From the IMG/VR virus record IMGVR_UViG_3300027763_000047, positions 6,308-70,307 of that record: a stretch of 64,000 bases of DNA. The stretch is one strand, 5' to 3'. Position numbers and translations under genes: made by a program. The notes under the pieces were generated by a model. That model saw only the letters and a list, made by a program, of their open reading frames with translations. It was not told the DNA's origin and ran no database searches. This stretch comes from a virus. Lineage: Duplodnaviria; Heunggongvirae; Uroviricota; Caudoviricetes. Of this stretch, positions 9,349 to 57,981 are shown piece by piece (the stretch's first letter is position 1; each line of letters begins with the position of its first letter).

Positions 9349-9357
9349 AATAATTCC

Positions 9358-10107: not shown

Positions 10108-10110
10108 AAT

Positions 10111-10434: not shown

Positions 10435-10462
10435 AATAATTCCTTTTTAATATTTAGTTTAA

Positions 10463-25961: not shown

Positions 25962-25962
25962 A

Positions 25963-27147: not shown

Positions 27148-27353
27148 TCATTGACTCAGGCTTCCAGTACGTCAAAACGATTCACAAACCCAAGGGGAGT
27201 CTGGATCGAATAATCGATTGGTGCAAACAGGAGACCCAGGGCGAGTGGCGATGGCAGTTAATTGCTGTTAGCAGCGAACATACCCCGGGCGAGTACATCT
27301 TTTATTTCGATTCCGAACGCGATTACCTTTCATTCCTAATGAAATGGTCTTGA
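27138..27353 (+). CDS. dispersed member of the LRWS paralog family
   Basis: I-D-W-C-K-Q-E core; C-term ERDYLSFLMKWS. Confidence 0.55.
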   Translation: MCLIIDSGFQYVKTIHKPKGSLDRIIDWCKQETQGEWRWQLIAVSSEHTPGEYIFYFDSERDYLSFLMKWS

Positions 27354-29371: not shown

Positions 29372-29503
29372 GTACCGCTATAACTACCATTATATGCGTA
29401 GTTATAGCAGTTAAGTACAAGGTTATTCAAAAGATTTGTTAGTTAAATAATCTTGCTATATAATATGTTACTCAATGTAGTTCAATTTAAAAAAGGAAAA
29501 GTA

Positions 29504-30673: not shown

Positions 30674-30688
30674 AAGTAAAAGGATAAC

Positions 30689-31228
30689 ATGAACAAGTTT
30701 TTATCAATCGTTATCCTAGCACTGGCTTCCGCTTCAGCGGTTGCTGGTGGCTATGTAACAGCAACCGACGGCAGCATCGTTAAGACTGGTAGTGATTTGT
30801 GTTTACACACAGGTTATTACACAGCTACTGATGCAGTTAAAGGTTGTGACGCAGTTCCAGTTACCCCAGCTAAGCCAGCATCAATCACGCTTGACTCAGA
30901 TGTATTGTTTAAGTTTGATTCGGCAACGCTAACCGCAGACGGTGTGAAAGCACTGGACGTGGTTGCAGCCAAAGCCGGTGGCGTTGTAATCATCGTAGGA
31001 CACACTGATCGTATTGGATCTAGTCGATACAATCAATCTTTAAGTGTTGCTCGTGCTGACACCGTTGCAAAATATGTAGGTGCAAAGGCAAAAGCAGATT
31101 ACTCAGTAACTGGAGTTGGATCCACACAACCAAGTGGCAAAACAAAACAATGTATTGGCCCTATGAGCCCGCAACTTATTGCTTGTTTAGCACCTGATCG
31201 TCGTGTAGTTATTACTATCGTTAAGTAA
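30689..31228 (+). CDS. OmpA-family C-terminal domain protein (signal peptide)
   Basis: VIIVGHTDRIGSSRYNQSLSVARADTV OmpA-like motif. Confidence 0.75.
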   Translation: MNKFLSIVILALASASAVAGGYVTATDGSIVKTGSDLCLHTGYYTATDAVKGCDAVPVTPAKPASITLDSDVLFKFDSATLTADGVKALDVVAAKAGGVVIIVGHTDRIGSSRYNQSLSVARADTVAKYVGAKAKADYSVTGVGSTQPSGKTKQCIGPMSPQLIACLAPDRRVVITIVK

Positions 31229-31331
31229 CATGGCTTGGGCCTCTGCGGTTTAACCGTACGCCTGAGTTTTCTAAATATAGCAACAAAACCCTACCCTGCC
31301 TCTCGCAGAAGCACACTTTGGAGGGTTACTC

Positions 31332-31362
31332 GGGACACAGTAATGTGTCCCATTTCTTTCTC
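31332..31362 (+). terminator. rho-independent terminator
   Basis: gggacaca-gtaa-tgtgtccc followed by atttctttctc. Confidence 0.65.
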
Positions 31363-31391
31363 TTGACATTTAATTCATCAACAACTATACT
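31363..31391 (+). promoter_or_regulatory. sigma70-type promoter
   Basis: ttgacatttaattcatcaacaactatact. Confidence 0.6.
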
Positions 31392-31451
31392 GTTATTATA
31401 GCAGTAAGAAGAATTTTATGCAGGTAACTCTCAAGATTAGGAACTATTATA

Positions 31452-31628
31452 ATGATTAGACTTTGGTTAATATTTGTTGTACTTTCAATATTAATTCATT
31501 TGGGTATCTCCACCTGGAGAAATATGAAAGGTAAGGATCGATGGGCATTGACTAAGTCCATTGGTTATAGTATAATTGTTGCATTACTAGTTGTTCTATT
31601 CTTAACTTCAATCGTTATTTTATTCTAA
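31452..31628 (+). CDS. small two-TM membrane protein (58 aa), not in track
   Basis: MIRLWLIFVVLSILIHLG... Confidence 0.4.
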   Translation: MIRLWLIFVVLSILIHLGISTWRNMKGKDRWALTKSIGYSIIVALLVVLFLTSIVILF

Positions 31629-31636
31629 GGAATTAT

Positions 31637-32434
31637 ATGAAACAAATTTTTAAATTGGCAGTTGTAGCAGGTCTTATCGCAACCACAGTTGGTTGTCAGC
31701 GTATTGAAACCGGCGAAGTAGGTGTACGAGTTGGCTTTGATAAACAAGTAAAACCAGGCGAGTTGCAACCAGGTTCTTTTAATCAAACACTAATTGGTGA
31801 TGTACTTACATTCCCTGTTCGTGATGTATCAGTTAAGATTGATGACATGACTCCGCTTGCCAAAGACAACAGCACTATGAAAGACATGGATGTTACTGTT
31901 ATCTATAACATCAATCCAACGCAAGTTAGCGAATTGTATGTTAGCAAGAACCGTAGCTTTCACGTTAAGCACAATGGTGACACTTACTTGATGTACAACT
32001 ACATTTTCAATGCCGCACGAAATGCTGCTTACAAAGCTGCTCGTAAGTATGACGCATTGACTATGAACGACAGTCGTGCGTTAATGGAACAGGATATGAA
32101 AGACATCATTGCCAAGACCTTGGCAGATGAAAATCTTGCTGGTTCAATTACAGTAAGCCAAGTTCTTATTCGTGCGCTAACTCCAGCAGACTCAGTGGTT
32201 GCGTCAGCCAATGAATTGGTACGTTCTAAGAACGAGCTGTTGCAAAAGGAGGTTGAAGTCAAAACAGCCGAAGCAGAATCTCGTCGTATGGCAGCACTTA
32301 CCAATCAAAGCTCGGCCAGTATTGCTTACATGAATGCTCAGGCTGCGTTAAACATCTCCGAAGGTGTCAAGAACGGTAAGGTGCAGACCATTATTGTTCC
32401 CAGCAACATGACCGGCTTGATGATTGGCAAGTAA
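31637..32434 (+). CDS. SPFH/band-7 domain lipoprotein
   Basis: lipobox LIATTVGC; ETGEVGVRVGF...DVTVIYNINP SPFH-like core. Confidence 0.55.
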   Translation: MKQIFKLAVVAGLIATTVGCQRIETGEVGVRVGFDKQVKPGELQPGSFNQTLIGDVLTFPVRDVSVKIDDMTPLAKDNSTMKDMDVTVIYNINPTQVSELYVSKNRSFHVKHNGDTYLMYNYIFNAARNAAYKAARKYDALTMNDSRALMEQDMKDIIAKTLADENLAGSITVSQVLIRALTPADSVVASANELVRSKNELLQKEVEVKTAEAESRRMAALTNQSSASIAYMNAQAALNISEGVKNGKVQTIIVPSNMTGLMIGK

Positions 32435-39739: not shown

Positions 39740-39961
39740 TTGAGTAAATCAGATGATGTAATTAAAATGGAGGGTGTAATCACCGAAGTATTACGAAACA
39801 CGAATTATCGTGTTAAAATTGAAAACATTGAAAATCACATTCTCGCTACACTAAGCGGGAGAATACGCCAAAATAATATCAAAGTACTTACAGGCGACAG
39901 AGTACAGTTAGATATATCACCCTACGACCTATCTCGTGGTAGAATTACACGTAGGCTATGA
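39740..39961 (+). CDS. infA: translation initiation factor IF-1 homolog
   Basis: EGVITEVLRNTNYRVKIEN...LSGRIRQNNIKVLTGDRVQLDISPYDLSRGRI aligns with bacterial IF-1; TTG start. Confidence 0.85.
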   Translation: MSKSDDVIKMEGVITEVLRNTNYRVKIENIENHILATLSGRIRQNNIKVLTGDRVQLDISPYDLSRGRITRRL

Positions 39962-40521
39962 TTTTAATAAATACCTACATGAGAGATTTATTAAACTTAG
40001 TGGAAGCAGCAACCGTTTCAGCTAAACTGGAAACTACCCCACTACCCTACGCACATAAAGATCTGGCTCCCATAATGAGCGCAGACACAATAGAATACCA
40101 CTACGAGCACCTGGCTAAAGGCTACGCTAAAAAGTACAATGCCGGCGAAGGTGATGCCGATTTCAACCGTGCTGGCAGCTTCTTACACAACAAATTCTTT
40201 CCCCAATTGCAAGCACCAAAAGGTGCCAACCGTCCCAAGGGTGCGGTGCTAGAACTCATTGAAGCTAACTTCAAAACTTACGAAGATTTCAAGGTAGCGT
40301 TCAAAGAAGCTGCCATGAAGATTCAGGGATCGGGTTGGGTTTATCTCAGCACAGGTGGAACTATTAAAACCATACGAAATCATCAGGTTCGTACCGATAT
40401 TTGTGTACTGGTTGACTGGTGGGAACATTCATGGTCGACGGATTACAAGTGGGATAAAGAAAAGTATCTAGATAATATCTGGAAAATTATCAACTGGAAC
40501 GTATGTTCGGAGAGAATATGA
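39958..40521 (+). CDS. divergent Fe/Mn superoxide dismutase-like protein
   Basis: [37 protein letters not shown] resemble SOD N- and C-domain signatures. Confidence 0.65.
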
Positions 40522-40844
40522 TCACACTAACTGAAAACGCCGCGATTAAAATTAAAGATTTATTAGCAGAAGAAAACAATCCCAAGCTAAAACTTCGTGT
40601 ATTCGTTCAGGGCGGCGGATGCAGTGGAATGCAGACAGGCTTTACCATGGATGAAGAACAAGCTGACGATGACTGGGAGGTCGAAGTCAATGGCGTTCAT
40701 TTGTTAGTAGATAGTATGAGTAGTAATTATTTAAAAGGTTCAACCGTGGATTATCGCGATGATATCAATGGATCTGCCTTTGTTATCACTGGCATGGAAG
40801 CCACAACGACATGTGGCTGTGGTAGTAGTTTTTCACCATATTAA
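40518..40844 (+). CDS. Fe-S cluster insertion protein, ErpA/IscA/HesB family
   Basis: [14 protein letters not shown]...CGCGSSF conserved cysteines. Confidence 0.8.
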
Positions 40845-40901: not shown

Positions 40902-42323
40902 ATGTCGCAACAAATTATTAATGTAGGTACGGCGCCCAACGATGGTTTGGGAACTCCAATACGTACTGCTTTTCAGTACACAAATAATAACTTCACGCAA
41001 CTGTTTTCGTTGCCGAATCCTACACCCCCAACTACCCTAGTGGGCAAAGCGGGCGATGTCCCGGGTATGTATGCATACAGCGCGGCATATTTTTACTACT
41101 GTTTTGGAACTTATGATGGTTCCACTGTTATTTGGGCACAGATTGCCCAGGGTAATACCTCAATCTCAAATATCGTTAATGGCACTAGTAATGTAAGAAT
41201 CGGTAGTGCCAATGCCAATGTAACCGTGGGAGTAAACGGTACAGCAAATATTGCAGTTTTCAGTAATACTGGAGTATCAGTAACTGGTAATATTAGAACC
41301 TCTGGACAAATAACAGCCACTGGTAATGTATATGGTAATGCCATTGTCGGCACTTACTTGTACGGAGATGGCAGCAATATTAGTAACATATCAGGTGGCG
41401 GGAATTACAGTAATACCAATGCAGCAGCATATCTACAGGTACTAACTTCAAATGTATCAACAACTGGCAACATAACCGGAAGTTATATTTTAGGCAATGG
41501 TAGAAATTTAACTGGATTACCGTTAACCTATGGCAATGCTAACGTTGCTAACTTTTTACCAGTATTTACTGGTAACATATTATCAAGTAATATGACCGCT
41601 ACTGGAAACGTGCATGCCGGAAATATTAAAACGGTGGGAATAGTTTCAGCAACAGGAAACATCACTACTGACGGATATTTTATTGGCAATTTCGTTGGGA
41701 ACATATCAGGTAACTTAGTAGTGCCTGGATCGAATACTCAAGTACTTTATAATGATAATGGAAATGCTGGAGCAAGCGCCGGGTTAATATTTAACTCTGC
41801 ATCAAACATTTTATCAGTAACGGGAAATGTGTATGGCAATTATTTTCTTGGTAACGGTAGTCAATTAACAGGGTTACCAGTTACGTATGGCAATGCCAAT
41901 GTGGCTGCTTATCTACCAACTTATACCGGCAACATAACAGCAGGTAATATCAGTACCACTGGAAATATAACAGCTAGCTATATTTTAGGTAATGGTAGTC
42001 AATTAACTGGCATCGCCGCCACCGGCATAAATGCAAACGCACTAACTGGATCTACCTTATCAAGCAATGTTACTACCAGCAGCTTGACTTCTGTTGGTAC
42101 TTTGGCAAATTTAAGTGTAACCGGCAATGTAGTGGCATCTGGGGTAGTGACTTCTACCGGCACATTTAGATTGCCTAGTTATACTACCGCACAAATTGCC
42201 AACATATCAGCGGTAGAAGGAGATATGGTTTATAATTCAACTGTACAACAAATACAAGCATATCAAGCAAATGCCACAGGTAACGTAACATGGGTAAGTT
42301 TAAGTGTGTCTACTTACCAGTAA
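40902..42323 (+). CDS. tail fiber protein
   Basis: N-term MSQQIINVGTAPNDGLGTPIRTAFQYTNNNFTQLF; ILGNGSQLTG modules shared with the giant fiber. Confidence 0.8.
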   Translation: MSQQIINVGTAPNDGLGTPIRTAFQYTNNNFTQLFSLPNPTPPTTLVGKAGDVPGMYAYSAAYFYYCFGTYDGSTVIWAQIAQGNTSISNIVNGTSNVRIGSANANVTVGVNGTANIAVFSNTGVSVTGNIRTSGQITATGNVYGNAIVGTYLYGDGSNISNISGGGNYSNTNAAAYLQVLTSNVSTTGNITGSYILGNGRNLTGLPLTYGNANVANFLPVFTGNILSSNMTATGNVHAGNIKTVGIVSATGNITTDGYFIGNFVGNISGNLVVPGSNTQVLYNDNGNAGASAGLIFNSASNILSVTGNVYGNYFLGNGSQLTGLPVTYGNANVAAYLPTYTGNITAGNISTTGNITASYILGNGSQLTGIAATGINANALTGSTLSSNVTTSSLTSVGTLANLSVTGNVVASGVVTSTGTFRLPSYTTAQIANISAVEGDMVYNSTVQQIQAYQANATGNVTWVSLSVSTYQ

Positions 42324-46294: not shown

Positions 46295-46896
46295 ACGTTA
46301 GAATAGTTTGCCCCTTGAGTTTTATCGCCGGTATACACTATAACGGTGAATTACAAATGAATAGTTATACTGTTAAGTTATTCATTTTAACCAATAGTTT
46401 AGATGGAACTATCAATAACATTGCACTTGATAGAATAAAATACTTTGTCTATCGAGAAATGGATAGTACTATTTTTATCAACAGCAAAGAAGAAGATCAG
46501 TGTCGATTATATCTTGACGCTAACATCAAAATTACCACCATACCCGAAGAACCTATTGATCAACTGGTGGGTATAATGCTGTTTAATAAACTGACTGCCA
46601 TTGTTGAAGATAGACTTATTATTGATGAAATAGAAATAAGTTCTGGTCTTGGCGACGGTATAATTTACATGCATAGTCAAGAAGAAAATGTAGATGATTT
46701 ACCCATACCCGATTGGTGGGCAACTTCTGACCTAGCACATTGTGATGCTAAATTCCTTGACGCTGATGAATATATTACTCTAGCCAATGTAACTATATGG
46801 CGAGATTTAGAGTTGCAATGGCCCGACGAAGCTGAACCCGAAGTTGGAAATACTGTTGTATTTGCGGATTTTAAATTACTAGATGAAAAAGAATAA
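46291..46896 (+). CDS. hypothetical protein
   Basis: 201 aa. Confidence 0.5.
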   Translation: MNVRIVCPLSFIAGIHYNGELQMNSYTVKLFILTNSLDGTINNIALDRIKYFVYREMDSTIFINSKEEDQCRLYLDANIKITTIPEEPIDQLVGIMLFNKLTAIVEDRLIIDEIEISSGLGDGIIYMHSQEENVDDLPIPDWWATSDLAHCDAKFLDADEYITLANVTIWRDLELQWPDEAEPEVGNTVVFADFKLLDEKE

Positions 46897-47407
46897 TTAC
46901 GGGGAAATGATTTTTAATGAGAATGATGTCCTTGATCAATTGATGAAGGGGCGTGCCGTTGATTCATTGAAAGGTATGCTGGTGGATGAAACTGTTGATA
47001 TCGAACAGATAGTATATTTTGTGGATCACTTTCCAACTACGTTTATGCCATACAAATTTACTCCTGATCAAGTTGTCTCGGTGCCCGCATGGGATGCCGC
47101 TCAACAGAAGACCTGGCATATGCCCCAGCAGTATCAGGATATGGACATAGCAGAATACGTGTTAAGTTTATGTGTTGATGATGCCGAACTACAAAGGTGT
47201 GGGGAAGAGCTATTGCTGTACCAACAGCACAACCTATTTAATCTACTGAAATATTTAAAATATTTGGTGGATGTAATGAAAGAGAACCACGTAATTTGGG
47301 GTGTCGGGCGAGGCAGTAGTGTGGCCAGCTTTGTACTGTATAAATTAGGCGTACACCGTATAAACAGTATGTACTATAATTTATCCATCACCGAATTTTT
47401 ACGTTAA
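46883..47407 (+). CDS. hypothetical protein
   Basis: 174 aa. Confidence 0.5.
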   Translation: MKKNNYGEMIFNENDVLDQLMKGRAVDSLKGMLVDETVDIEQIVYFVDHFPTTFMPYKFTPDQVVSVPAWDAAQQKTWHMPQQYQDMDIAEYVLSLCVDDAELQRCGEELLLYQQHNLFNLLKYLKYLVDVMKENHVIWGVGRGSSVASFVLYKLGVHRINSMYYNLSITEFLR

Positions 47408-47431: not shown

Positions 47432-47899
47432 ATGACAACAAAAGTCTATAAAACCGCAAAAGGTAAACCAGTAGACCTTGGAGCATTACGTTTACAAAAC
47501 GAAAATGTTCGAGCAGTTGGTAATATGAATGTAAATGCCCGTGGGGATAGGATCGACGCTGATGGCAACGTAATTGACCCTCGTAATCAACAGATTCAAC
47601 GACGAATACAACGACAAACTAATGTGGCCAGCGGACCGGTACACTCAAGCTCACGTGCTCAACAAGCGGAACAGGTAGCAGCAGAAAATCCAGTGATGCC
47701 CACACGACCAGTAGCACCGGCTGCGGATCCACTCCCTATTCCAGCGGCTCCTCCGGTTGCAACTAGGGAAACAATCGTTACCCAAGATAATGCATTTGCC
47801 GCGGCAATGGGACGTACCAAGACAGTTACACAGACGTTAGAATTAACCGAACGTCAGAAATTAGAAAATCAAATAGCGCAAGCAAAAAAGGGAAAATGA
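47432..47899 (+). CDS. hypothetical protein
   Basis: 155 aa; Pro/Ala-rich middle. Confidence 0.5.
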   Translation: MTTKVYKTAKGKPVDLGALRLQNENVRAVGNMNVNARGDRIDADGNVIDPRNQQIQRRIQRQTNVASGPVHSSSRAQQAEQVAAENPVMPTRPVAPAADPLPIPAAPPVATRETIVTQDNAFAAAMGRTKTVTQTLELTERQKLENQIAQAKKGK

Positions 47900-48291
47900 A
47901 AGCACAGTACGCACCACATAAAGTAGAAAAGCAGAAACTTAAAGTATTACAAAACAATGTTCTGGTATCGGATATGGTGTTTGATGAACGTATCAGTACA
48001 GGCGGTATCTTACTGTTAAATGACAATGGCAAAGGCAATGGTATTCGCCCACGCTGGGGTCGTGTATACGCAGTAGGTCCAGAACAAAAAGATGTTAACG
48101 TAGGTGATTGGGTATTGGTAGCACATGGTCGTTGGACTAGGGGTTTAGATCTCGAAGACGAAAATGGCAAATTAACCGTTCGTAAGATTGATCCTAAAGA
48201 TATCCTACTAGTATCAGATGACGAAGAGTGCCCCACAGTCGAAGGCATTAGTTCTGCCGTGCATGTAGATCGTAAGGAAATGCCTAATTAA
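47896..48291 (+). CDS. co-chaperonin GroES-like (Cpn10)
   Basis: TGGILL, RVYAVGPE...VNVGDWVLV, KDILLV match GroES core. Confidence 0.6.
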   Translation: MKAQYAPHKVEKQKLKVLQNNVLVSDMVFDERISTGGILLLNDNGKGNGIRPRWGRVYAVGPEQKDVNVGDWVLVAHGRWTRGLDLEDENGKLTVRKIDPKDILLVSDDEECPTVEGISSAVHVDRKEMPN

Positions 48292-48364
48292 ACCAAAGTG
48301 TTTGCTTTTATCATCTGCTCCATGTATAATTGTATTATGAATTTTAAAAAGCATGGAGCATTAA

Positions 48365-49291
48365 ATGAATGATTTATGGACAGAAAAGTACAGACCCAAT
48401 ACAGTCGATGGATATGTTTTTACAGACGATGCACAACGACAGCAAGTACAACATTGGATTAAGCAAGGCAGTATCCCACACTTATTACTAAGTGGTAGTC
48501 CCGGCACTGGTAAAACTACCCTGGCTAAATTACTGATCAATGAGCTTGGGGTAGATGAATTTGATGTGCTATACTCAAATGGATCTAAAGATGCCCGTAA
48601 ACTAGATTGGGTGGACAAACTGATTGGCTTTTGTAGTACTATGCCTTTTGGTAAATTTAAAGTGGTATTGGTTGATGAAGCGGATTTTATGAATCCAAAT
48701 TCTGTACAACCAGCACTTAGAAACCTAATGGAAGACTACAGTGAAAGCGTCAGATTTATCCTGACCTGTAACTATCCCAATAAGATACTGCCAGCATTGC
48801 ACAGTCGGTGTCAAGGGTTTCACATGCAAAAGACAGATCTTGTGGAATTTACAGCTCGTCTAGCAACTGTATTGATCAGCGAAGAAATAGATTTTGACTT
48901 GCCCACACTTGATTTATTTGTAACAGCCACATATCCAGATCTACGTAAATCGTTAAATTTGCTACAGGCTAATTCAACAACAGGAAAACTTGTTGAGCCC
49001 AGTTCAACTGAACAGTCAGTTGATAATTGGAGACTGCAAGCAGTATCGTTATTCAAAGCTGGTAATATCAATGAAGCACGTAAGGTTATCTGCAATCAAG
49101 CAAACATTGAAGATATGGATAGCATGTATCGATGGATGTATGATAACCTTTCGCTATGGAGTGACACACAGGAAGGACAAGACCGAGCGATTATTATTAT
49201 TAGAAACTCGCTGGCTAACGTTCATTTGATGTCAGATCAAGAAATCAACTTATCAGCAACGCTTTGCGAATTAACTCAAATAGGAAATTAA
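48365..49291 (+). CDS. clamp-loader ATPase (RFC/gp44-like)
   Basis: WTEKYRP, Walker A SGSPGTGKTT, VLVDEADF. Confidence 0.75.
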   Translation: MNDLWTEKYRPNTVDGYVFTDDAQRQQVQHWIKQGSIPHLLLSGSPGTGKTTLAKLLINELGVDEFDVLYSNGSKDARKLDWVDKLIGFCSTMPFGKFKVVLVDEADFMNPNSVQPALRNLMEDYSESVRFILTCNYPNKILPALHSRCQGFHMQKTDLVEFTARLATVLISEEIDFDLPTLDLFVTATYPDLRKSLNLLQANSTTGKLVEPSSTEQSVDNWRLQAVSLFKAGNINEARKVICNQANIEDMDSMYRWMYDNLSLWSDTQEGQDRAIIIIRNSLANVHLMSDQEINLSATLCELTQIGN

Positions 49292-49594
49292 ATGCGATAC
49301 TTAGTTATCATGTATATTAAAAAGCCCGATGGGCAAGTAGATGAAGCAACAACTGTTACAAAATCACTTAAATCAAAAGACTTGTCTATGGGTAGTGTAA
49401 TCCTTGACTTTAAAGAAAAGAAAATTGTTAAAGCCAGCTTTAGTGGCACACTGGCTGAGAAACGCTGGGATAAGATTCGAGATTTTTATTACGAGTTTTA
49501 CCCAAAGTACATTGACCTGCTGGAAGCAGCCTATCAAACTATAGAAGAGATTCAAAATGAAGTATCTACCGAAACAGAAAATAATCCTAACTGA
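49292..49594 (+). CDS. small hypothetical protein (possible clamp-loader partner)
   Basis: 100 aa directly downstream. Confidence 0.4.
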   Translation: MRYLVIMYIKKPDGQVDEATTVTKSLKSKDLSMGSVILDFKEKKIVKASFSGTLAEKRWDKIRDFYYEFYPKYIDLLEAAYQTIEEIQNEVSTETENNPN

Positions 49595-50162
49595 TTGTGA
49601 CGGAGTATGTTTAGATTGGGAATGGGCATTTAATATCTGGATGTATCAACACGGATTTGAAGAAATTCCTGGTGCCAAACTAAACTATGACATGTCTGTA
49701 CGTTATGGCATTCCGCGTGAACAAGTAGTTAAACTGATCCGCATTTTTAATGAAAGTGCGTCTATCGGATTCTTGCCGCCCATGCGTGATGCCATGTATT
49801 ATATCAAAAGATTGCATGAAGAATTTGGTTATAAGTTTCATGCCATTACTTCATTGAGTTTAGATCCTAATGCTCAGAAGCTAAGGGAAATGAATCTTCA
49901 TAAGTTATTTGGTCCTACCGCATTTGAGCGTATTGTATGTTTAGATACTGGTGCTGATAAAGATGAGGCGTTGGCAGAATATAAAGACTCCGGATATTAT
50001 TGGATTGAAGATAAGTGGGCCAATGCTGAAGCCGGCTATAAAGCCGGCCTCAGGTGTATCGTGTTAGAACATGGTCATAATATGTACGAGTATCATCCAG
50101 AAATTACTATCTTAAAAAACTGGAAAACAATATTTGACCATATTACCGATCAGTCGGAATAA
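49557..50162 (+). CDS. HAD-superfamily phosphatase (5'-deoxynucleotidase-like)
   Basis: IILTDCDGVCLDW (DxDG motif). Confidence 0.5.
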   Translation: MKYLPKQKIILTDCDGVCLDWEWAFNIWMYQHGFEEIPGAKLNYDMSVRYGIPREQVVKLIRIFNESASIGFLPPMRDAMYYIKRLHEEFGYKFHAITSLSLDPNAQKLREMNLHKLFGPTAFERIVCLDTGADKDEALAEYKDSGYYWIEDKWANAEAGYKAGLRCIVLEHGHNMYEYHPEITILKNWKTIFDHITDQSE

Positions 50163-50935
50163 AGGCGAAGCACGGAATCAATGATTCTGTGCCGCTGTAT
50201 GTCGCGACTATCTAGCTCGCACACAGCTATTCCATTTACACCTCCTTTCAACAATCTTTGGCATAAATCTGCGAGGCCGTTGTTACCTTTAGTGCGGTCA
50301 GCTTGTTCAATATCTCCCGTAATGACGATTTTACTGCCTTCGCCGATACGTGTCATTAGCATCTTACATTGTGCCGGAGTAGCATTCTGCATCTCATCAG
50401 CTATAATGTATGCGTTTTTAAAGGTTCTACCCCTCATAAACGCAAGTGGTGCTATCTCTATTTTTTGATCCTCTAACATACCAGCAATATCCTGCTGACG
50501 ATAATATTCACGAAGAATATCAGTTAAGGGCCTTACCCATGGATCCATCTTTTGGTTTAAATCTCCTGGTAAAAATCCATGTTTTTCATCTTCTACGCCA
50601 ACTGCTGGTCGTGTTAGGATTATACGATCAACTTCTCCTTCGCGGAATGCCTTAACAGCGGCTAGCATAGCAAGGTAAGTTTTACCTGTACCAGCTGGAC
50701 CTGCTGTGATTACAATATGTTGACTTTCATCTTGCAATGCCAATACCAATCGCTCTTGATTTCGTGTACGGGGCACGATATCAATGGGACGTTGTTTTAA
50801 GGGTTTTGCTTGATTGAAGTTTATTGTATTTTCTTGAAATACCGTATCACGGCGTTGTGATTTTACTGCTTTGTGTCTACTCATTAAAGCCTCATGTAGA
50901 AGTAAGTTACTGCTATCAGCACCTTGCTGACCCAA
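50150..50935 (-). CDS. phoH: PhoH-like ATPase
   Basis: ITAGPAGTGKTYLAM and YIIADEMQN. Confidence 0.85.
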   Translation of the reverse strand: MGQQGADSSNLLLHEALMSRHKAVKSQRRDTVFQENTINFNQAKPLKQRPIDIVPRTRNQERLVLALQDESQHIVITAGPAGTGKTYLAMLAAVKAFREGEVDRIILTRPAVGVEDEKHGFLPGDLNQKMDPWVRPLTDILREYYRQQDIAGMLEDQKIEIAPLAFMRGRTFKNAYIIADEMQNATPAQCKMLMTRIGEGSKIVITGDIEQADRTKGNNGLADLCQRLLKGGVNGIAVCELDSRDIQRHRIIDSVLRLYSD

Positions 50936-51063
50936 GTATTTACATCAGTGTATTTTTATATTCTATGAGTAGTAAAAAGGTGTTATAAGTTGATAAGTAT
51001 TAGGCTATACTGTAAATTCTTACATTCCCAATATTATGCCATATTCGCAACTACACTAAATAC

Positions 51064-51684
51064 TTGACTATGGCAAACAAAGCATTCGATTCAGAAATAT
51101 TCAAAGATCACCAAGATTATTGGCAAGTGGCCCAAAACATCAAGGACATATACCTATCCGAGGGTACGCTATTGACCCTGTTAGACTTCGAGCGTGTATT
51201 AGATTCCATGGATCTATACGCATTTAAAAACTGGGATATCGGTGAGCTGGTACAAGGCCCAACAGTGGGAAAATATCACGTTAGTTGTATATTTCTCTGG
51301 CCCGAAAACTTAATGCCCGATCCACGTGGTGGACGTAGATTATTACCGTTTGATTGTACTGTAAAGTACAAGAAAACTGACATGAAGATTCCCATTAAAA
51401 TTGATGATCCTAGCGATTATCGCCCGGGAACAAAAATAGCAAGAATCATTGAGAAAAAGGTATGGTTGGTGGAAATCACCATGCCCAAAACTTTGATGAG
51501 CGATATACGTACAGGCAGTATTGATCTTGAAGAACAGGAACTTGATCTACAAGAATTAGATAACGCTTATTCGGTTGATGAACGTGGTACTGCACCTAGC
51601 GCACCGCCTGGAGCAGCACCGGCCCCAGCGGCACCTGCTGCTGCCGCAGCAGCCGCACCGGCCGCACCCCCCACTGGCGCATAA
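51064..51684 (+). CDS. hypothetical protein with Pro/Ala-rich C-terminus
   Basis: 206 aa; CTAAATACTTGA motif just upstream. Confidence 0.5.
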   Translation: MTMANKAFDSEIFKDHQDYWQVAQNIKDIYLSEGTLLTLLDFERVLDSMDLYAFKNWDIGELVQGPTVGKYHVSCIFLWPENLMPDPRGGRRLLPFDCTVKYKKTDMKIPIKIDDPSDYRPGTKIARIIEKKVWLVEITMPKTLMSDIRTGSIDLEEQELDLQELDNAYSVDERGTAPSAPPGAAPAPAAPAAAAAAAPAAPPTGA

Positions 51685-51686
51685 AA

Positions 51687-52244
51687 ATGACTAATAAACC
51701 ATCAAATTTTAACTTTGTTTTCGAAGGATTAGGATATAAGGATATGGATGGCTTGATCAAGCCTATTGTCCATGTTGATGAATTTACCAGTAAAATGGGT
51801 GACGATGATGATGTCATTGTATTATCTTTTTTCCTACGTGATCCTACCGCAGCCAAGGACCTAATGAATTGGTTTGAACGTGGCTATGATTTTATTATTG
51901 ATGCTGATCGTAGCCCAGGTGAAATCAAAACAAATAGATACCTAGTATTTGTTGAAATACGTCGACGCAGTACAGCCGGCGCACATGTCAACCGATTATT
52001 AGAAGACCTGAGTACACTAACAGAACATGATGTAGAAGATTGGAAAATGGTGTACGATGGTAAGGAATTTCCCTTTAGCCAGGAAGAGTTTGAAAAAATA
52101 GTTCCACTATCGCCAAAAGCATATCGCGAGGCACACGATGGTGAATTAAATGAAATGCGTACCGCAGCTGGATTACCAGTAAAAACATATTATGAGCAGG
52201 ATAACGATATTAAATCAATACAATCTGCTGCGGGGATACTGTAA
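51687..52244 (+). CDS. hypothetical protein
   Basis: 185 aa. Confidence 0.5.
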   Translation: MTNKPSNFNFVFEGLGYKDMDGLIKPIVHVDEFTSKMGDDDDVIVLSFFLRDPTAAKDLMNWFERGYDFIIDADRSPGEIKTNRYLVFVEIRRRSTAGAHVNRLLEDLSTLTEHDVEDWKMVYDGKEFPFSQEEFEKIVPLSPKAYREAHDGELNEMRTAAGLPVKTYYEQDNDIKSIQSAAGIL

Positions 52245-52474
52245 TGAAAATGTCAGAAATATTAAGAATAATAGCGGACACCATTGAGCCACTAGAAGAG
52301 TACGATCCTGCAGAAGTTACTCCTGACAATCCTGTAGAAGACCCTGCTCCTGGGATCGCATTGATCGTTCACCATGAACCGGAAATGGAACCTGAAATGC
52401 AGCAGGCCCCCGAACAAGAACTTCCTGCTGGACTAAGTGATATACTTAGGCTCGCCGGTGGCCCTGGTTGCTAG
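52244..52474 (+). CDS. small acidic protein
   Basis: 76 aa. Confidence 0.4.
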   Translation: MKMSEILRIIADTIEPLEEYDPAEVTPDNPVEDPAPGIALIVHHEPEMEPEMQQAPEQELPAGLSDILRLAGGPGC

Positions 52475-52492
52475 AATCTGGTGTCTATAAAT

Positions 52493-52753
52493 TTATTTTA
52501 CTGAATCAAATATCTTTTTTTGTTCTATATACCAGTTATTCCACGCATCAACTTTGTAACTACATTCATGATATTTTCCATAGTTTGTAGTTACATTAGA
52601 TATTAAAACACTTAGTTTATTAGTTATAGGAGCAGCAGTAAGCTGTTCACATGCTGTGGTCAATGATGGCGGAACAGATGGAAAATTTCTTTCAACCGGC
52701 GTTGCGACACAGCCTGTTAAAAATAATAAAGATAAAATTATAACTGATTTCAT
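52493..52753 (-). CDS. o-spanin-like outer-membrane lipoprotein
   Basis: lipobox LFLTGC; ATGA overlap with upstream gene. Confidence 0.5.
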   Translation of the reverse strand: MKSVIILSLLFLTGCVATPVERNFPSVPPSLTTACEQLTAAPITNKLSVLISNVTTNYGKYHECSYKVDAWNNWYIEQKKIFDSVK

Positions 52754-53196
52754 TTCTTAACTCCTACTAATGCTGATTGATTTAGTATGTCAATAGCCAA
52801 TGGATCAACTTTACAAGTTAAGTCAAGTTTAGCAGCATTTTTGGCAATGCGATTTTTAACTACATACTGAACTTCTTTCACAATTTTAACACGATCAACA
52901 TACACCGTTTCAATTTTGCCATTAGCTTCAGCGGCCTCCTTCTCTGCCTTAGCAACCTTTATTTCAAGTTCGGCAACTCTTGCTGCCCATTTGGCTTCAT
53001 TTGCAATTCCGCCTTCTATCCACACACAAAATACAATAAGCACGGCACTAGCAATACGAATTACAAATGCATTGGTTGTGATAAAAGGAATCATTTTAAG
53101 AATGTAGCTGGCCCCAAATGCTAGTATAGCAAATATTAACAATAGATGATATACAAAATCAGGTAATAAAGATAACAGCCACATTATTTGCCACAT
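52750..53196 (-). CDS. i-spanin-like membrane protein with coiled coil
   Basis: N-terminal TM(s) then AARVAELEIKVAKAEKEAAEANGKIE coiled coil; directly downstream of endolysin. Confidence 0.45.
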   Translation of the reverse strand: MWQIMWLLSLLPDFVYHLLLIFAILAFGASYILKMIPFITTNAFVIRIASAVLIVFCVWIEGGIANEAKWAARVAELEIKVAKAEKEAAEANGKIETVYVDRVKIVKEVQYVVKNRIAKNAAKLDLTCKVDPLAIDILNQSALVGVKK

Positions 53197-53197
53197 A

Positions 53198-53827
53198 TCA
53201 TGCCCCTAGTACGTGACAAGCATGTTGATAGTGTTTTTCTCTGTCAGCAAGGCCAATGGTGCCACCATTGATTCGTTTAGTTAATGTTAAAATATCACCT
53301 GCGTCAGCAAATTGATTTAGTCCATTAGTTTCCCAGAACCAACATGCGCTCTGAACAGCGCCTTCAAATGTACCTAGGTACTCTGGCAATTGTTCAACAG
53401 GAGTTTCTATACTTTCCGCAAAGCGTGTATAATTATCTTTGCCTGTTAACTGGATAAGACCCTTGCCTGCGTAACGCCATCCATCACCACTTTCTTCTGG
53501 ACCATTGCCCATGCGGTCACAATAAGCACGATTGGCTATCATTTCTTGATTGTGTGCGTATTGCTCTGCAATAGCAGGCGGAAAACGACTAGGCCAGACA
53601 CGGCTTAATGATGCTGCTGTGTAGTTTAAGTTTTCTTTTAATGCTGTAAAATTAGCACTCTCGTGGGCACATTGAGCTAAAAAAGCAGCTACCCTAGGTA
53701 CTGTGTTAATTTCGTAATCAGGTAATATACGTGATATAGCATCATACCACTCTGCCACATACGGATTGTTAGGTATAATTTGTGCCAGTTGTTCTGGTGT
53801 AAAGTTGAATGCGAATCCTTGACTCAT
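53198..53827 (-). CDS. GH19 (chitinase-like) endolysin
   Basis: AAFLAQCAHESANF and YAGKGLIQLTGKDNY signatures. Confidence 0.8.
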   Translation of the reverse strand: MSQGFAFNFTPEQLAQIIPNNPYVAEWYDAISRILPDYEINTVPRVAAFLAQCAHESANFTALKENLNYTAASLSRVWPSRFPPAIAEQYAHNQEMIANRAYCDRMGNGPEESGDGWRYAGKGLIQLTGKDNYTRFAESIETPVEQLPEYLGTFEGAVQSACWFWETNGLNQFADAGDILTLTKRINGGTIGLADREKHYQHACHVLGA

Positions 53828-53838
53828 TTAATTTTCCT

Positions 53839-54195
53839 TTATTTTTTAGGTACTAGGTGACCAAACTGAGCTTCAGCACGGCGTGTGCCTGGACCAGTAA
53901 TTCCATCTGCTGTGATCTTAGCTCCGGCAGCAATTAGTTCTTTTTGACGTTTCTGAACAGCAGCATCAAAACCAGGTGGTTTAGCAGCTGGCTTGGCAGG
54001 TGCCTTAGCTGGTACTGCTGTGCCTTCGTATTTCTTGTGTACCTTAATAGTACGGCAAGTTTGCTTAGTTGTCCCATCTTTATTTAATACAACATGACCA
54101 GCTTTGTCTTTAACTGGATTACATACTTGTTTAGTTTCGGCGGCATTAGCAGAAGATGCTATGCCTAATATGATTATTGCAAATAGAGTTTTCAT
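53839..54195 (-). CDS. secreted protein with PG_binding_1-like domain
   Basis: signal peptide; DGITGPGTRRAEAQFG. Confidence 0.5.
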   Translation of the reverse strand: MKTLFAIIILGIASSANAAETKQVCNPVKDKAGHVVLNKDGTTKQTCRTIKVHKKYEGTAVPAKAPAKPAAKPPGFDAAVQKRQKELIAAGAKITADGITGPGTRRAEAQFGHLVPKK

Positions 54196-54204
54196 TATTA
54201 TTCC

Positions 54205-54729
54205 TTATAAGGGTTGATCTACTTGTGCTGCTGGACCTGGTTTGCCAGCATACATAGTTTTTGTTGGTGCGCTGTTAAACCCGGGAGATGGACTGTTAAA
54301 TCCATTTGAGGGACTATTGAATCCAGGTGATGGGCTACCAAATCCAGATGATGGACTGTTAAGCCCGGTTGACGGACTGTTAAATCCTGACGATGGGCTA
54401 CCATATCCATTTGATGGATTATTACCATACCCTGTATTCATGCCATTGTTGACCCCGGCTAATTTTTCTTGGGTACGCCCAAATGCCGCTACTCCTATTA
54501 TGGCACCCATTGCCATATGAAATAGTCCTGCTCCTTGAAGAGTGATTGGTTGCCATTGTGTTTCAACACGGCCACCATGTGCTGCTTGTATTAAACTCCA
54601 TAGTATAGGAAATACCACAAAATCACACATACAGACAAACATATACATCCACCCCATCATAGGGCGCCATTTGCTGTTCATCCAATCTTCTTTTTTCTTT
54701 TCGCTTTCAGATTGTACTGTTTCTGACAT
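54205..54729 (-). CDS. holin-like membrane protein with C-terminal SPSxGFN heptad repeats
   Basis: two TM segments; 7 tandem S-P-S-x-G-F-N repeats; first gene of lysis cluster. Confidence 0.4.
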   Translation of the reverse strand: MSETVQSESEKKKEDWMNSKWRPMMGWMYMFVCMCDFVVFPILWSLIQAAHGGRVETQWQPITLQGAGLFHMAMGAIIGVAAFGRTQEKLAGVNNGMNTGYGNNPSNGYGSPSSGFNSPSTGLNSPSSGFGSPSPGFNSPSNGFNSPSPGFNSAPTKTMYAGKPGPAAQVDQPL

Positions 54730-54779
54730 ACTAAATCCTCGAATTGTACAGATATTTATCTAGATTCACCAAAGCTAGA

Positions 54780-54808
54780 TTGACATAAATATCGTTTTAC
54801 TATACAAT
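54780..54808 (+). promoter_or_regulatory. sigma70-type promoter
   Basis: ttgacataaatatcgttttactatacaat. Confidence 0.6.
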
Positions 54809-54840
54809 ACACCCATGACTATCTTATACCCTGTTACCAT

Positions 54841-55638
54841 ATGAGTAATCCTTACGATACACTGGGCGTGCCTAAAAACGCCACTACTGACGAAATTAAA
54901 AAGGCTTACCGCAAGTTGGCTAGTCAACATCATCCTGACAAAGGTGGCGATACCAAAAAATTCCAAGACATACAAACAGCTTACGAGACACTGGGTGACG
55001 AACAAAAACGTGCTCAGTATGATAGACCACAGCCGCAAGGTGTGCATTTTGAATTTGGTGGACCGGGAGGATTCGATCTCGGTAGTATATTCAATATGTT
55101 CGGGGCGAAGGGATTTCAAAATCATCCTCCTGGTCAGCCACCAAGACAACAGCACACACGCATGAGCTTGTGGATTACCTTATCAGACATTGCATCGGGC
55201 GGAAAACGTACAGTAGCCATTGGCGGTAGCCACGGTAGTATGAACATTGAAATCGAAATCCCCATGGGTATCAATGATGGAGACAATGTTCAGTATGGAG
55301 GAATTGGTCCGGGAAATACGGATCTAATTATTAACTTCCGTATTCATCCTCACCCCAAATGGCAACGTAATGGATTGACACTAATTGCCGAACAAACGGT
55401 ATCCATCTGGGACTGTTTAGTAGGCGGTGAAACAATTGTAAAAGATTTACTGAATAATCAATATACTATTAGTGTTCCCCCATTAACTCAACCAGGGAGT
55501 TTATTAAGATTAAAAGACAAAGGGTTGCGTAACAGGCAAGGTCAGTCCGGAGATCTACTGATTAGGATTCAGGCTAAAATGCCAGAATCTATCAGCCAAG
55601 AGCTATCGGAACTGATTAAAGAGCAGCAGGAAAAATAG
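54841..55638 (+). CDS. J-domain protein (DnaJ/CbpA-like, no zinc finger)
   Basis: YDTLGV...AYRKLASQHHPDKGG (HPD motif) plus DnaJ C-terminal-like domain. Confidence 0.8.
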   Translation: MSNPYDTLGVPKNATTDEIKKAYRKLASQHHPDKGGDTKKFQDIQTAYETLGDEQKRAQYDRPQPQGVHFEFGGPGGFDLGSIFNMFGAKGFQNHPPGQPPRQQHTRMSLWITLSDIASGGKRTVAIGGSHGSMNIEIEIPMGINDGDNVQYGGIGPGNTDLIINFRIHPHPKWQRNGLTLIAEQTVSIWDCLVGGETIVKDLLNNQYTISVPPLTQPGSLLRLKDKGLRNRQGQSGDLLIRIQAKMPESISQELSELIKEQQEK

Positions 55639-55701
55639 TCTTATCACTTGTATTTAAAATATTTTTACTATATACTATAACGGTACTGGATAAAGGATAC
55701 C

Positions 55702-57981
55702 ATGCAAAACAACAAAGAAATTGAAGCAATTGTAGGGCAGGCGGTTTCGATTGCTCGGATTAAACATCACGAGTATGTGCTAACCGAACATATATTATTG
55801 GCCTTAATACGCCACATTCCTTTCCGCAAAGTACTGGAAGGATTCGGTACAAGTATTGCACTCATGGACGAGGAATTAGATGTCTATTTGGACAGTTTAA
55901 CCAGTATAGTTACATCTAAGTCAGAATTTCAACCACGTAAAACTAACGCCCTTGAACGTTGTTTTAATCGGGCTATGACACAGGTGTTATTTACTGGCCG
56001 CCGTTCAGTAACCACATTTGATTTGTATCTTGCTATGATGAGTGAGACAAACAGTCACGCACATTACTTCCTGATGAAGTATGGAGTTAAGAAAGCCGAG
56101 TTTATGGAATACTGGCAGCAAAATTATAAAGCTGAAGATGCCGAGGTTAGTGCTTCTGAAGCTGATGCCATCTTAACTGAATTTTGTACAAACCTAACCA
56201 AAATGGCTACTGAAGATAAGTTAGAGCCAATGATTGGCCGCTCAGCTGAACTAGACGAAATCATTACTGTACTGGCTCGAAAGTTTAAAGCTAACGTACT
56301 AATGGTGGGCGATCCGGGTGTAGGCAAAACTGCCATCGCAGAAGGGCTTGCCCAGGAAATTGTAAACAACCGTGTACCCGCATTCCTTAACGGACATGAA
56401 GTATGGAGTTTGGAAATCGGCTCATTGTTAGCCGGCAGTAAGTATCGTGGCGAATTTGAGGAAAAGTTTAAACAGGTCATTGGTGCATTAGAAGCCAAGA
56501 AAAATTGTATCTTATTTGTTGATGAAGCACATACAATGAAAGGCGCTGGCGCAAGTTCACAATCATCACTAGACTTTGCTAATATGCTAAAGCCAGCTAT
56601 TACCAAGGGTTATCTTAAGGTAATTGCGTCAACTACCTGGGAAGAATTCTATGAGTCATTTGAAAAGGATCGTGCGCTAATGCGTCGATTCCATCGTGTG
56701 TCCATTGACGAACCCACGCCAGAAGTAACGGAGCAAATCTTAATCGGCTTATCACCTCGCTTGGAAAAATTCCACGATGTGTTGATTGATACTGATGCTA
56801 TTAAAGCAGCAGTAGACTTGTCGGGTCGTTACATACATGATCGCAAGAATCCAGATAAGTCAATTGACTTGCTAGACGGTGCATGTGCCAAGGAACGTGT
56901 TAAAGATATAGGCACTACTACTGTGACTAAAGACATGATCATGGCACAGTTGAGTCGTATTACTGAGGTTCCCATGGATCGTTTACAAAACGAACGTTCG
57001 GCTAATATTGTGGAACTGGAAGGTAATATTAAACAGAAGTTGTATGGCCAAGACGAAGCTGTTAATTCGGTACTTGAGCGGGTATACATTAACTTCTCGG
57101 GTATTGGTAACGAAAACAAACCAATTGCCAGCTTCTTATTCTTGGGACCAACTGGCACAGGTAAGACAGAATTGGCCAAGTTATTGGCTGAGCATTTAGA
57201 TATGCAGTTGTTGAAATATGACATGAGTGAGTTCCAGGAGAAGCATACTGTTAGCTCATTGATTGGTGCTCCCCCAGGATACGTTGGGTTTGAAGATGGT
57301 AATGTGGGTGGTGGAAAACTTATTAGTGATGTCAGTAAGAACCCTTATTCAATCTTGTTGTTTGATGAAATTGAAAAGGCACATCCGGATGTAGTTAACC
57401 TTATGTTGCAAATGTTGGATGAAGCTCGCATCACCAGTGCCAATGGTAAAACTGTTAACCTGAAGAACTGCATCATTATTATGACCAGTAACTTAGGTGC
57501 TCGCGACAATGAGAATAACAACATTGGCTTTGGGCAGACACTGGAAAAGACAGGATCAGAACACAAGGCAATGAAGGATTTCTTTAAACCTGAATTACGT
57601 AATCGTATTGATCAAATCTGTCGCTTTAAGAAACTAGATACACTGGCTGTTAAGAAAATTGTTGTTAAATTTGTTGATCAACTACAAACCAGTTTAAGCA
57701 CAAAGAATATTCGTCTTAACTTATCCGAGCCAGTAATCGACATGCTGGTTGAAAAAGGCTATGATAACAAGATGGGTGCTCGACCATTAAATCGTAAGAT
57801 TGATGAACTTATTCGCGTACCATTGAGTAAGAAAATTCTCTTTGAACGATTAAGTGACTGTGTAATTACAGCGGACATGGTTAATGATCAAATTGACTTT
57901 ATCATCATACCTAATCCCGCATTAGCTATTGTCGACAACTCAGGAATTATTTTACTTGATGGCGAATCTTCCACCGTTTAA
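55702..57981 (+). CDS. ClpA-like AAA+ unfoldase (two AAA domains)
   Basis: Clp-N LTEHILLALI; D1 GDPGVGKTAIAEGLA; D2 GPTGTGKTELAKLLAE, LLFDEIEKAHPDV; 759 aa. Confidence 0.85.
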   Translation: MQNNKEIEAIVGQAVSIARIKHHEYVLTEHILLALIRHIPFRKVLEGFGTSIALMDEELDVYLDSLTSIVTSKSEFQPRKTNALERCFNRAMTQVLFTGRRSVTTFDLYLAMMSETNSHAHYFLMKYGVKKAEFMEYWQQNYKAEDAEVSASEADAILTEFCTNLTKMATEDKLEPMIGRSAELDEIITVLARKFKANVLMVGDPGVGKTAIAEGLAQEIVNNRVPAFLNGHEVWSLEIGSLLAGSKYRGEFEEKFKQVIGALEAKKNCILFVDEAHTMKGAGASSQSSLDFANMLKPAITKGYLKVIASTTWEEFYESFEKDRALMRRFHRVSIDEPTPEVTEQILIGLSPRLEKFHDVLIDTDAIKAAVDLSGRYIHDRKNPDKSIDLLDGACAKERVKDIGTTTVTKDMIMAQLSRITEVPMDRLQNERSANIVELEGNIKQKLYGQDEAVNSVLERVYINFSGIGNENKPIASFLFLGPTGTGKTELAKLLAEHLDMQLLKYDMSEFQEKHTVSSLIGAPPGYVGFEDGNVGGGKLISDVSKNPYSILLFDEIEKAHPDVVNLMLQMLDEARITSANGKTVNLKNCIIIMTSNLGARDNENNNIGFGQTLEKTGSEHKAMKDFFKPELRNRIDQICRFKKLDTLAVKKIVVKFVDQLQTSLSTKNIRLNLSEPVIDMLVEKGYDNKMGARPLNRKIDELIRVPLSKKILFERLSDCVITADMVNDQIDFIIIPNPALAIVDNSGIILLDGESSTV

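Follow-up and report, generated by a model that had tools for sequence, protein, structure and literature searches.

Hsp10, DnaJ and ClpA/ClpX have been listed for jumbo phages (Iyer et al. 2021, PMC7824862), ClpA is highly conserved across most Rak2-like phages (Attai et al. 2018, PMC6102473), and a 2025 survey found ClpA among the genes widely shared by freshwater 'moraphages' (PMC12619734). The phages and samples that we compared here and looked for in that survey are not mentioned there, and no experimental study of phage Hsp10, DnaJ or ClpA was found in our literature search. Here we describe a 64-kb stretch of DNA from a tailed phage (IMG/VR record IMGVR_UViG_3300027763_000047, positions 6,308 to 70,307; G+C content 38–46%), hereafter called the window, which encodes a GroES-like co-chaperonin, a DnaJ-like J-domain protein (J-protein) and a ClpA-like double AAA+ unfoldase. 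The trio is known as a hallmark of a whole group of jumbo phages, so that it was to be expected here; it is less novel than a preliminary description of the window implied, as Rak2-like and PA5oct-like phages have been reported to carry the set (PMC6102473, PMC7824862). What appears to be new is that the DnaJ-like and ClpA-like genes form a near-invariant pair behind a conserved near-consensus sigma-70 promoter, and that this phage seems to be without the phage ClpP of its relatives.

The closest described system is that of the PA5oct group, whose ClpA-like protein is the best isolate match to that of the window (~40% identity over 95% of its length), followed by those of Phosso and Atu_ph07. 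PA5oct (MK797984; EST35_0290, EST35_0297 and EST35_0298) shares with the window the order chaperonin, clamp-loader-like gene, PhoH on the opposite strand, structural genes, DnaJ and ClpA. DnaJ likewise lies directly upstream of ClpA in Atu_ph07 (gp292/gp293), and upstream of it with a deformylase inserted in Phosso. An IGF tripeptide is shared with PA5oct and Atu_ph07, to which the identity of the ClpA-like protein is 37–40%. The window differs in having a minus-strand lysis cassette before the DnaJ-like gene, which is not present at the corresponding place in PA5oct, and in having no intact ClpP or ClpS, whereas PA5oct and Atu_ph07 have ClpP and Atu_ph07 also has ClpS, ClpX and ClpB.

We identify the phage as a large freshwater phage carrying the module of PA5oct/Rak2-like jumbo phages; its genome is probably larger than 300 kb, of which the window covers 64 kb. 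Comparison of the region with 50,697 phage records (megablast) gave no match at the DNA level, and relatives were recognized at the protein level only. A ClpA-like match spanning 80% or more of the protein was present in 45 of these 50,697 records, while 184 ClpA-like relatives were found in IMG/VR, so that the earlier remark that ClpA homologues are uncommon in phages is right for sequenced phages overall and wrong for this lineage. Bacterial contamination or host DNA was rejected as the source of the three genes, given their synteny with PA5oct and their position amid phage genes for structure, lysis and replication.

The DnaJ–ClpA gene pair and its putative promoter

The three open reading frames (ORFs) named in the preliminary description were recovered on the plus strand at 47896–48291 (GroES-like), 54841–55638 (DnaJ-like) and 55702–57981 (ClpA-like), and sequence and fold searches assigned them to the families proposed for them and not to unrelated ones: ClpA with 792 bits to the family profile, DnaJ with E = 4.5e-24, and GroES with marginal sequence scores and an agreeing fold. 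Synteny and gap lengths were counted over 87 loci with a complete ClpA-like ORF. Of these, 85 had a DnaJ-like gene just upstream in the same orientation, separated from the ClpA-like gene by −47 to +74 nucleotides (nt) in 83 loci and by larger gaps in Phosso (520 nt) and locus L034 (438 nt). The two loci without an upstream DnaJ-like gene were L005, where the sequence ends 301 nt upstream of ClpA, and Vibrio phage 2.275.O, which is the only true absence among the 87.

A sigma-70-type promoter-like site (TTGACA-17 nt-TACAAT, 54780–54808, plus strand), matching the consensus at 11 of 12 positions, lies 33 nt upstream of the start of the DnaJ-like gene. It is the highest-scoring sigma-70-like site across 47–59 kb and the sole plus-strand site with a score of at least 11/12 between 40 and 64 kb of the window. 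Equivalent sites upstream of the DnaJ-like gene were present in the related loci, with at least 10/12 matches in 63 of 86 and at least 11/12 in 45 of 86. No terminator-like site was found between the DnaJ-like and ClpA-like genes. The whole window contains 18 sites with at least 11/12 matches to TTGACA-N17-TATAAT, compared with 2.4 expected from shuffles, and 16 of them are on the plus strand. Most are intergenic, 26–60 nt upstream of gene starts, in an accessory region at 7–39 kb; examples on the plus strand are those at 7239, 7656, 18419, 22443, 23066, 23886, 27350, 36442 and 38832, besides the one at 54780. These 18 sites probably represent an early promoter class. As a near-consensus sigma-70 promoter is probably transcribed by unmodified host RNA polymerase, and early, we infer that DnaJ–ClpA is a bicistronic unit read by the host enzyme, probably early in infection, amid late-type genes.

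The GroES-like gene belongs to another block. It lies ~7 kb from the DnaJ–ClpA pair and adjoins the clamp-loader gene, and no such near-consensus sigma-70 site was found for it. The trio had been presented as one set; only DnaJ and ClpA are operon-like.

The ClpA-like unfoldase

The ClpA-like protein (55702–57981) has 759 amino acids (aa) and was identified with Pfam, NCBIfam and alignment to PDB entries. Its Pfam domains are Clp_N, AAA, AAA_lid_9, AAA_2 and ClpB_D2-small. The NCBIfam model for ClpA, TIGR02639, matched residues 5–719 at profile positions 3–726 of 734 with 792 bits, and E. coli ClpA (PDB 1KSF) aligned in a single contiguous stretch (4–719 against 3–727, E = 2.6e-174). ClpB and ClpC aligned in two separated stretches, from which we conclude that the coiled-coil middle domain is missing from the phage protein; this rules out a ClpB or ClpC identity. 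The protein thus resembles E. coli ClpA (PDB 1KSF, 6W1Z) in its N domain, D1 and D2, in having no middle domain, and in all catalytic and pore-loop motifs. Unlike E. coli ClpA, it has no adjacent clpS, is preceded by a dnaJ-type gene and carries an extra, poorly conserved C-terminal tail of 37 residues (723–759). By its sequence it is a divergent member of the ClpA family and no equivalog of bacterial ClpA.

Conservation was examined in 77 unique homologues, derived from 80 IMG/VR loci, four isolate phages and the window. The Walker A and B motifs of both modules (Walker A of D1 at nt 56308–56331 and of D2 at nt 57145–57168, both on the plus strand), the KYR (D1) and GYVG (D2) pore loops and sensor-2 are essentially invariant. 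Docking of ClpA on ClpP occurs through an IGL/IGF-type tripeptide; an IG(F/L) tripeptide is not known from ClpB or Hsp104, neither of which binds ClpP. The preliminary description had singled out a ClpP-binding IGF/L loop in D2 as a feature to check, and a candidate is present: IGF at residues 608–610 (nt 57523–57531, plus strand) aligns with IGL 617–619 of E. coli ClpA. This IGF is invariant in 76 of the 77 homologues, the exception being the Vibrio phage, which has IGV.

The ratio of non-synonymous to synonymous substitution rates (dN/dS) was 0.03–0.06 for the ClpA-like gene against close relatives, 0.05–0.07 for the DnaJ-like gene and ~0.1 for the GroES-like gene. All three genes, with values of 0.03–0.10, are under strong purifying selection. 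The N domain of the ClpA-like protein (residues ~1–145) is its fastest-evolving structured part, with 17% identity to that of PA5oct compared with 46–47% for D1 and D2. Counterparts of residues E28 and T81, which contact ClpS in the N domain of E. coli ClpA, are conserved in the phage N domain; the same residues also belong to the general Clp_N repeat. No ClpS was found in the window or in any flank examined. By its conserved motifs and its fast-evolving N domain, the ClpA-like protein looks like an active translocase built for ClpP docking, whose domain for substrates or adaptors is specific to the lineage.

The DnaJ-like J-protein

The product of the DnaJ-like gene (265 aa) was classified with Pfam and by alignment to Thermus DnaJ2. 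It consists of a J domain (residues 3–61; Pfam DnaJ, E = 4.5e-24) with an HPD motif (residues 31–33, nt 54931–54939, plus strand), a Gly/Phe-rich linker (residues ~66–95) and DnaJ C-terminal substrate-binding domains (residues 107–248; Pfam DnaJ_C, E = 2.7e-26, profile positions 2–152 of 152). The HPD motif is invariant in all 78 DnaJ-like homologues in which it was compared. The zinc-finger motif CxxCxGxG was found in 0 of 79 homologues, which have 0–3 cysteines each, and the cut-off for canonical class A DnaJ was missed (171 against 377, TIGR02349). From its sequence we conclude that the J-protein is a complete zinc-finger-less (class B-like) Hsp40 and more than a bare J domain.

Its closest described counterparts are Thermus DnaJ2 and CbpA, which it resembles in the J domain with HPD, the Gly/Phe-rich linker, the C-terminal domains and the missing CxxCxGxG motif. 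Thermus DnaJ2 (PDB 6PSI/4J80) aligned over its full length (5–261 against 8–271, E = 2.5e-33), and the NCBIfam model PRK10266, which represents E. coli CbpA, aligned over residues 5–260. Unlike DnaJ2 and CbpA, the phage J-protein is paired with clpA and not with dnaK, grpE or cbpM, and its scores reached none of the curated equivalog cut-offs. The T4-like phage RB43 has a J-domain protein, Rki, that is little more than a J domain plus a short extension. The J-protein of the window, a full Hsp40 with client-binding C-terminal domains, is set apart from Rki by that description. Rki acts through host DnaK, according to the account of Perrody et al. 2012 (PMC3486835) cited in PMC12619734. No member of the Hsp70, GrpE, Cpn60, ClpP or ClpS families is encoded in the window, and any partner DnaK or GroEL must therefore be that of the host.

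ClpP in relatives and its site in this phage

With E. coli ClpP as the query, which was confirmed by an identical (100%) sequence in the collection searched, genuine full-length ClpP was found to be encoded by PA5oct, where it is 46% identical to E. coli ClpP and lies 13 kb upstream of ClpA, and by Atu_ph07 and Phosso, where it is 64% identical to E. coli ClpP. The same type of ClpP is encoded on more than 570 IMG/VR stretches. ClpP and the ClpA-like protein occur together, 30–34 kb apart, on the IMG/VR contigs 3300021197_001489 and 3300020463_001991, whose ClpA-like proteins are 62–65% identical to that of the window. Because relatives encode a genuine ClpP of their own, their sequences point to a phage ClpP, and not that of the host, as the ancestral partner of the ClpA-like protein, which is apparently also a new point.

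The window was scanned for ClpP and ClpS with phmmer, tblastn, a custom hidden Markov model (HMM) run on six-frame translations, and Pfam. No intact ClpP and no ClpS was found within the 64 kb by any of the four methods. Homologues of the genes that flank ClpP in relatives map nearly all to 17–40 kb of the window, where blastx placed them mainly at 23120–23896, 24942–25373, 25885–26664, 28182–28598 and the genes for initiation factor IF-1 and superoxide dismutase (SOD). The commonest order in relatives is a 23120-like gene, a 24942-like gene and ClpP. The gene at 24942–25373 (plus strand), which encodes a 143-aa protein of no known family, served as an anchor: its homologue lies directly upstream of ClpP in many relatives, with a gap of 2–3 nt in loci L452 and L319. 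ClpP has apparently been lost in this phage, and natural lineages with and without a phage ClpP appear to exist. The nearest relatives at the ClpP site, as judged from two anchor genes, are just 70–80% identical, and gene order is too fluid to gauge how far the loss of ClpP has spread.

In loci L466 and L468 (IMGVR_UViG_3300027710_001079 and 3300009419_000011) the 23120-like and 24942-like anchors are found inside the chaperone block, with the GroES-like gene on one side and the clamp loader on the other, which shows how freely the region is rearranged. The IF-1 and SOD genes, whose homologues are often near ClpP in relatives, are part of a group of three adjacent host-like genes at 39740–40844 (plus strand) that encode IF-1 (PF01176, 1.3e-18), an Fe/Mn superoxide dismutase (Sod_Fe_C, 3.8e-20) and an IscA-type Fe-S assembly protein (1.7e-17).

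Between the genes at 24942–25373 and 25885–26664, the window has a 66-codon ORF (25564–25764, plus strand) with weak similarity to the N-terminal part of ClpP. Its product resembles ClpP residues ~17–82, which comprise helix A, strand 1 and helix B. When the ClpP of locus L292 was searched against the whole window with tblastn, it matched positions 25546–25713 (E = 1e-4, 24 of 64 identities), and 34 of 79 ClpP queries matched the same bin of the window. The ClpP profile score was reached anywhere in 2 of 100 shuffled windows, and alignment of the 66-aa product with ClpP by hhalign gave a probability of 61% (P = 8e-5). The arrangement with this ORF is reproduced in at least five independent metagenome assemblies, and its orthologues form 39 clusters, nearly all of exactly 66 aa. 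The Ser/His/Asp triad and the INSPGG and GxxSMG motifs are absent from the ORF, which stops at about ClpP residue 85, and the N-terminal extension of 84-aa variants is not ClpP-like, so that no ClpP N-terminus was recovered from them. A plain pseudogene fragment was rejected, because the ORF is intact and its length is conserved in the 39 clusters. At most, the ORF is plausibly a derivative of the N-terminal segment of ClpP; alternatively, the resemblance may be due to chance.

The GroES-like co-chaperonin

On sequence alone, the 131-aa GroES-like protein (47896–48291) is the weakest of the three family assignments, which for this protein draws on Pfam, PHROG and the predicted fold. Pfam Cpn10 was matched with E = 2e-4, barely over its cut-off (21.8 against 21.1 bits). 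The best PHROG was 931, 'head morphogenesis' (3e-13), and PHROG 3188, 'co-chaperonin GroES', was matched with 1.3e-5. Single-sequence and profile searches with the protein against PDB gave nothing significant, and a profile of its family (n = 3918 homologues) reached only E ~0.2 with GroES in PDB, aligning residues 14–90 with GroES 2–82. In this profile alignment the conserved GGI(L/V)L of the family falls on the mobile-loop motif GGIVL of GroES. The corresponding motif of the window protein is GGILL (residues 36–40, nt 48001–48015, plus strand); in the family, G37 never varies, and G36 and I38 hardly do.

An AF2 model of the protein (pLDDT 70.7) has a beta-barrel and, at GGILL, a disordered loop of low pLDDT. 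The top 12 Foldseek hits to this model were all GroES, Hsp10 or T4 gp31, with probabilities of 0.99–1.0, E values of 6e-3 to 2e-2 and a TM of ~0.5; gp31 (PDB 1G31) ranked fifth. As modelled, the GroES-like protein thus has the Cpn10 beta-barrel fold. It shares with T4 gp31 (PDB 1G31) and GroES this predicted barrel, a long flexible loop and GGI(L/V)L, and differs from them in size (131 aa compared with 97 for GroES and 107 in the gp31 structure) and in its marginal sequence similarity. A conserved 25-aa C-terminal tail (residues 106–131), predicted to be disordered, has no counterpart in GroES or gp31; its positions S107, S119, A121 and H123 are invariant in the family.

Proposed function and alternatives

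We propose that the conserved module of PA5oct/Rak2-like jumbo phages combines two distinct devices for proteostasis, a gp31-like protein that would work with host GroEL, and a DnaJ–ClpA operon that would drive host DnaK and a ClpP-feeding unfoldase, most likely with host ClpP in the present phage. We put the probability of this joint model at about 0.6. By analogy with T4 gp31, the GGILL loop of the GroES-like protein would cap the host GroEL ring and phage proteins, classically the major capsid protein, would fold. The dnaJ-clpA operon would be transcribed early by host RNA polymerase from its near-consensus sigma-70 promoter, and the J-protein would recruit and activate host DnaK on clients of its own choosing. 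The ClpA-like hexamer would be a fully competent ATP-driven unfoldase, the IGF loops of which dock on a ClpP ring and feed unfolded proteins into it. In this phage, host ClpP and the phage unfoldase would form a hybrid protease, whose choice of substrates may be set by the fast-evolving phage N domain. The physical interactions with GroEL, DnaK and ClpP, the expression timing and the substrates are all inferred. Host ClpP is favoured here for one reason only: at the place where relatives keep ClpP, the window lacks an intact copy. The partnership with host ClpP suggested in the preliminary description is thus retained for this phage and abandoned as the default for the family, since relatives carry their own ClpP.

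The vague idea that the phage may reprogramme host proteostasis is now replaced by specific hypotheses on ClpP docking, an ancestral phage ClpP and co-transcription with a full Hsp40 from an early-type promoter. Lineages with and without a phage ClpP would offer a natural comparison for the hijacking of a host peptidase by a viral unfoldase. If such hijacking does occur, it would plainly exemplify a virus that turns a degradation machine of bacteria to new targets, with a bearing on host takeover and possibly on anti-defence.

Several points weigh against the joint model. The ClpA-like protein is under the NCBIfam equivalog cut-offs, with 792 against 993 bits for TIGR02639 and 651 against 1350 for PRK11034, and its N domain is very divergent, as the 17% identity to that of PA5oct illustrates. 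The GroES assignment combines marginal sequence scores with a model of moderate confidence (pLDDT 70.7, TM ~0.5), and the promoter-like sites rest on consensus matches. The ClpP ancestry of the 66-codon ORF is moderately supported, given the hhalign probability of 61%, the conservation of the ORF itself and the longer variants that are not ClpP-like. Gene order in the region of the ClpP site is fluid among relatives, and an intact ClpP may lie in the genome beyond the 64-kb window.

Such a phage ClpP outside the window would yield a fully phage-encoded ClpAP, as in PA5oct, Atu_ph07 and Phosso, and host ClpP would be unneeded. Each isolate examined that has the DnaJ–ClpA pair has a genuine ClpP, the two IMG/VR contigs mentioned above hold both genes at a distance of 30–34 kb, and this type of ClpP is abundant in freshwater samples that hold the ClpA of the window, e.g. 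3300027969 and 3300010885. The position of ClpP also varies among relatives. We nevertheless consider this explanation unlikely, if a serious contender: the region with the ClpP-flanking genes (17–40 kb) lies wholly inside the window and four methods found no ClpP there, while the commonest ClpP site, after the 24942-like gene, is occupied in at least five assemblies by the short ORF with similarity to the ClpP N-terminus. The missing ClpP could also mean that the ClpA-like protein works without any, as a stand-alone unfoldase, remodelling chaperone or translocase with DnaJ/DnaK as partner, in virion assembly or in the dismantling of host complexes. E. coli ClpA by itself can remodel P1 RepA, and both the location of the operon among structural and lysis genes and the tight linkage to DnaJ, which suggests a chaperone network over a protease, would agree with such a role. 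If there were no docking on ClpP, however, the invariance of IGF in 76 of 77 homologues would be difficult to account for, the protein has no M-domain of the kind that couples ClpB to DnaK, and a sigma-70-type promoter fits early expression and not the late expression of assembly genes; a ClpP-free function therefore seems improbable to us.

Conserved IGF, a divergent and fast-evolving N domain and the absence of ClpP from the window would also agree with a competitor or decoy that occupies host ClpP and blocks ClpXP/ClpAP, for example to prevent degradation of phage proteins or protease-dependent triggering of defence. For a decoy, two intact ATPase modules, pore loops and sensor-2 under strong purifying selection would be needless, and the ClpP carried by relatives points to productive proteolysis, which makes this explanation very improbable indeed. 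A more speculative extension is that the J-protein and the ClpA-like protein form an obligate, phage-specific Hsp40–ClpA pair without a bacterial counterpart. The J-protein, by itself or via host DnaK, would choose clients and pass them on to the unfoldase in a ClpS-like adaptor role, to be unfolded or to be destroyed through ClpP, and the 66-residue ORF product, kept at the former ClpP site in the lineage of the window, would be a ClpP-derived micro-protein that modulates docking on host ClpP. An obligate pair would explain the near-invariant pairing, the gene order and the early-type promoter across highly divergent jumbo phages; as a whole, we regard this extension as doubtful.

Other features of the window

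In the neighbourhood of the three genes, the clamp-loader gene lies at 48365–49291 and PhoH at 50150–50935 (minus strand), and two virion structural genes are also present. The lysis cassette (52493–54729, minus strand) lies between the structural genes and the DnaJ–ClpA pair and includes a GTA_holin_3TM holin (54205–54729, minus strand) and a GH19 endolysin (53198–53827, minus strand). Further members of the cassette are a 118-aa secreted protein, a membrane protein and a small lipoprotein. An Rz1-like LysC was matched in the window with Pfam and is probably part of the cassette. Upstream of the GroES-like gene, a 174-aa ORF (46883–47407, plus strand) has similarity to the NTPase domain of bacterial DNA polymerase III alpha (PF07733, 2.6e-7), of which only 70 residues are matched; in PA5oct, a short 'DNA polymerase III' gene is annotated near its ClpP.

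At ~29453–32434 (plus strand) the window encodes a Gram-negative porin (Porin_4, 2.3e-41) and OmpA-family and Band-7/SPFH proteins; on the basis of size and signal-peptide-like N-termini, these envelope-type candidates were tentatively put on the ORFs at 29453–30673, 30689–31228 and 31637–32434. The porin, OmpA-family and Band-7/SPFH genes point to a Gram-negative (proteobacterial-type) host, and the proteobacterial-type porin speaks against the Bacteroidota host proposed for most moraphages (PMC12619734).

A head-to-tail array of ~25 small ORFs (60–100 aa), many with overlapping stop and start codons, occupies 112–5464 and 27138–27353 (plus strand). Fifteen of them belong to one paralogous family by blastp, and none has a Pfam match. 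On the minus strand, 9028–17437 encodes a 2324-aa protein and, after it in the same orientation, three small Gly-rich, paralogue-like ORFs (MVAP..GGGI..); these genes probably specify tail fibres or adhesins. A 473-aa protein encoded at 40902–42323 carries a related N-terminal motif, GTAPNDG..G.P.RTAF..N.NFTQLF.

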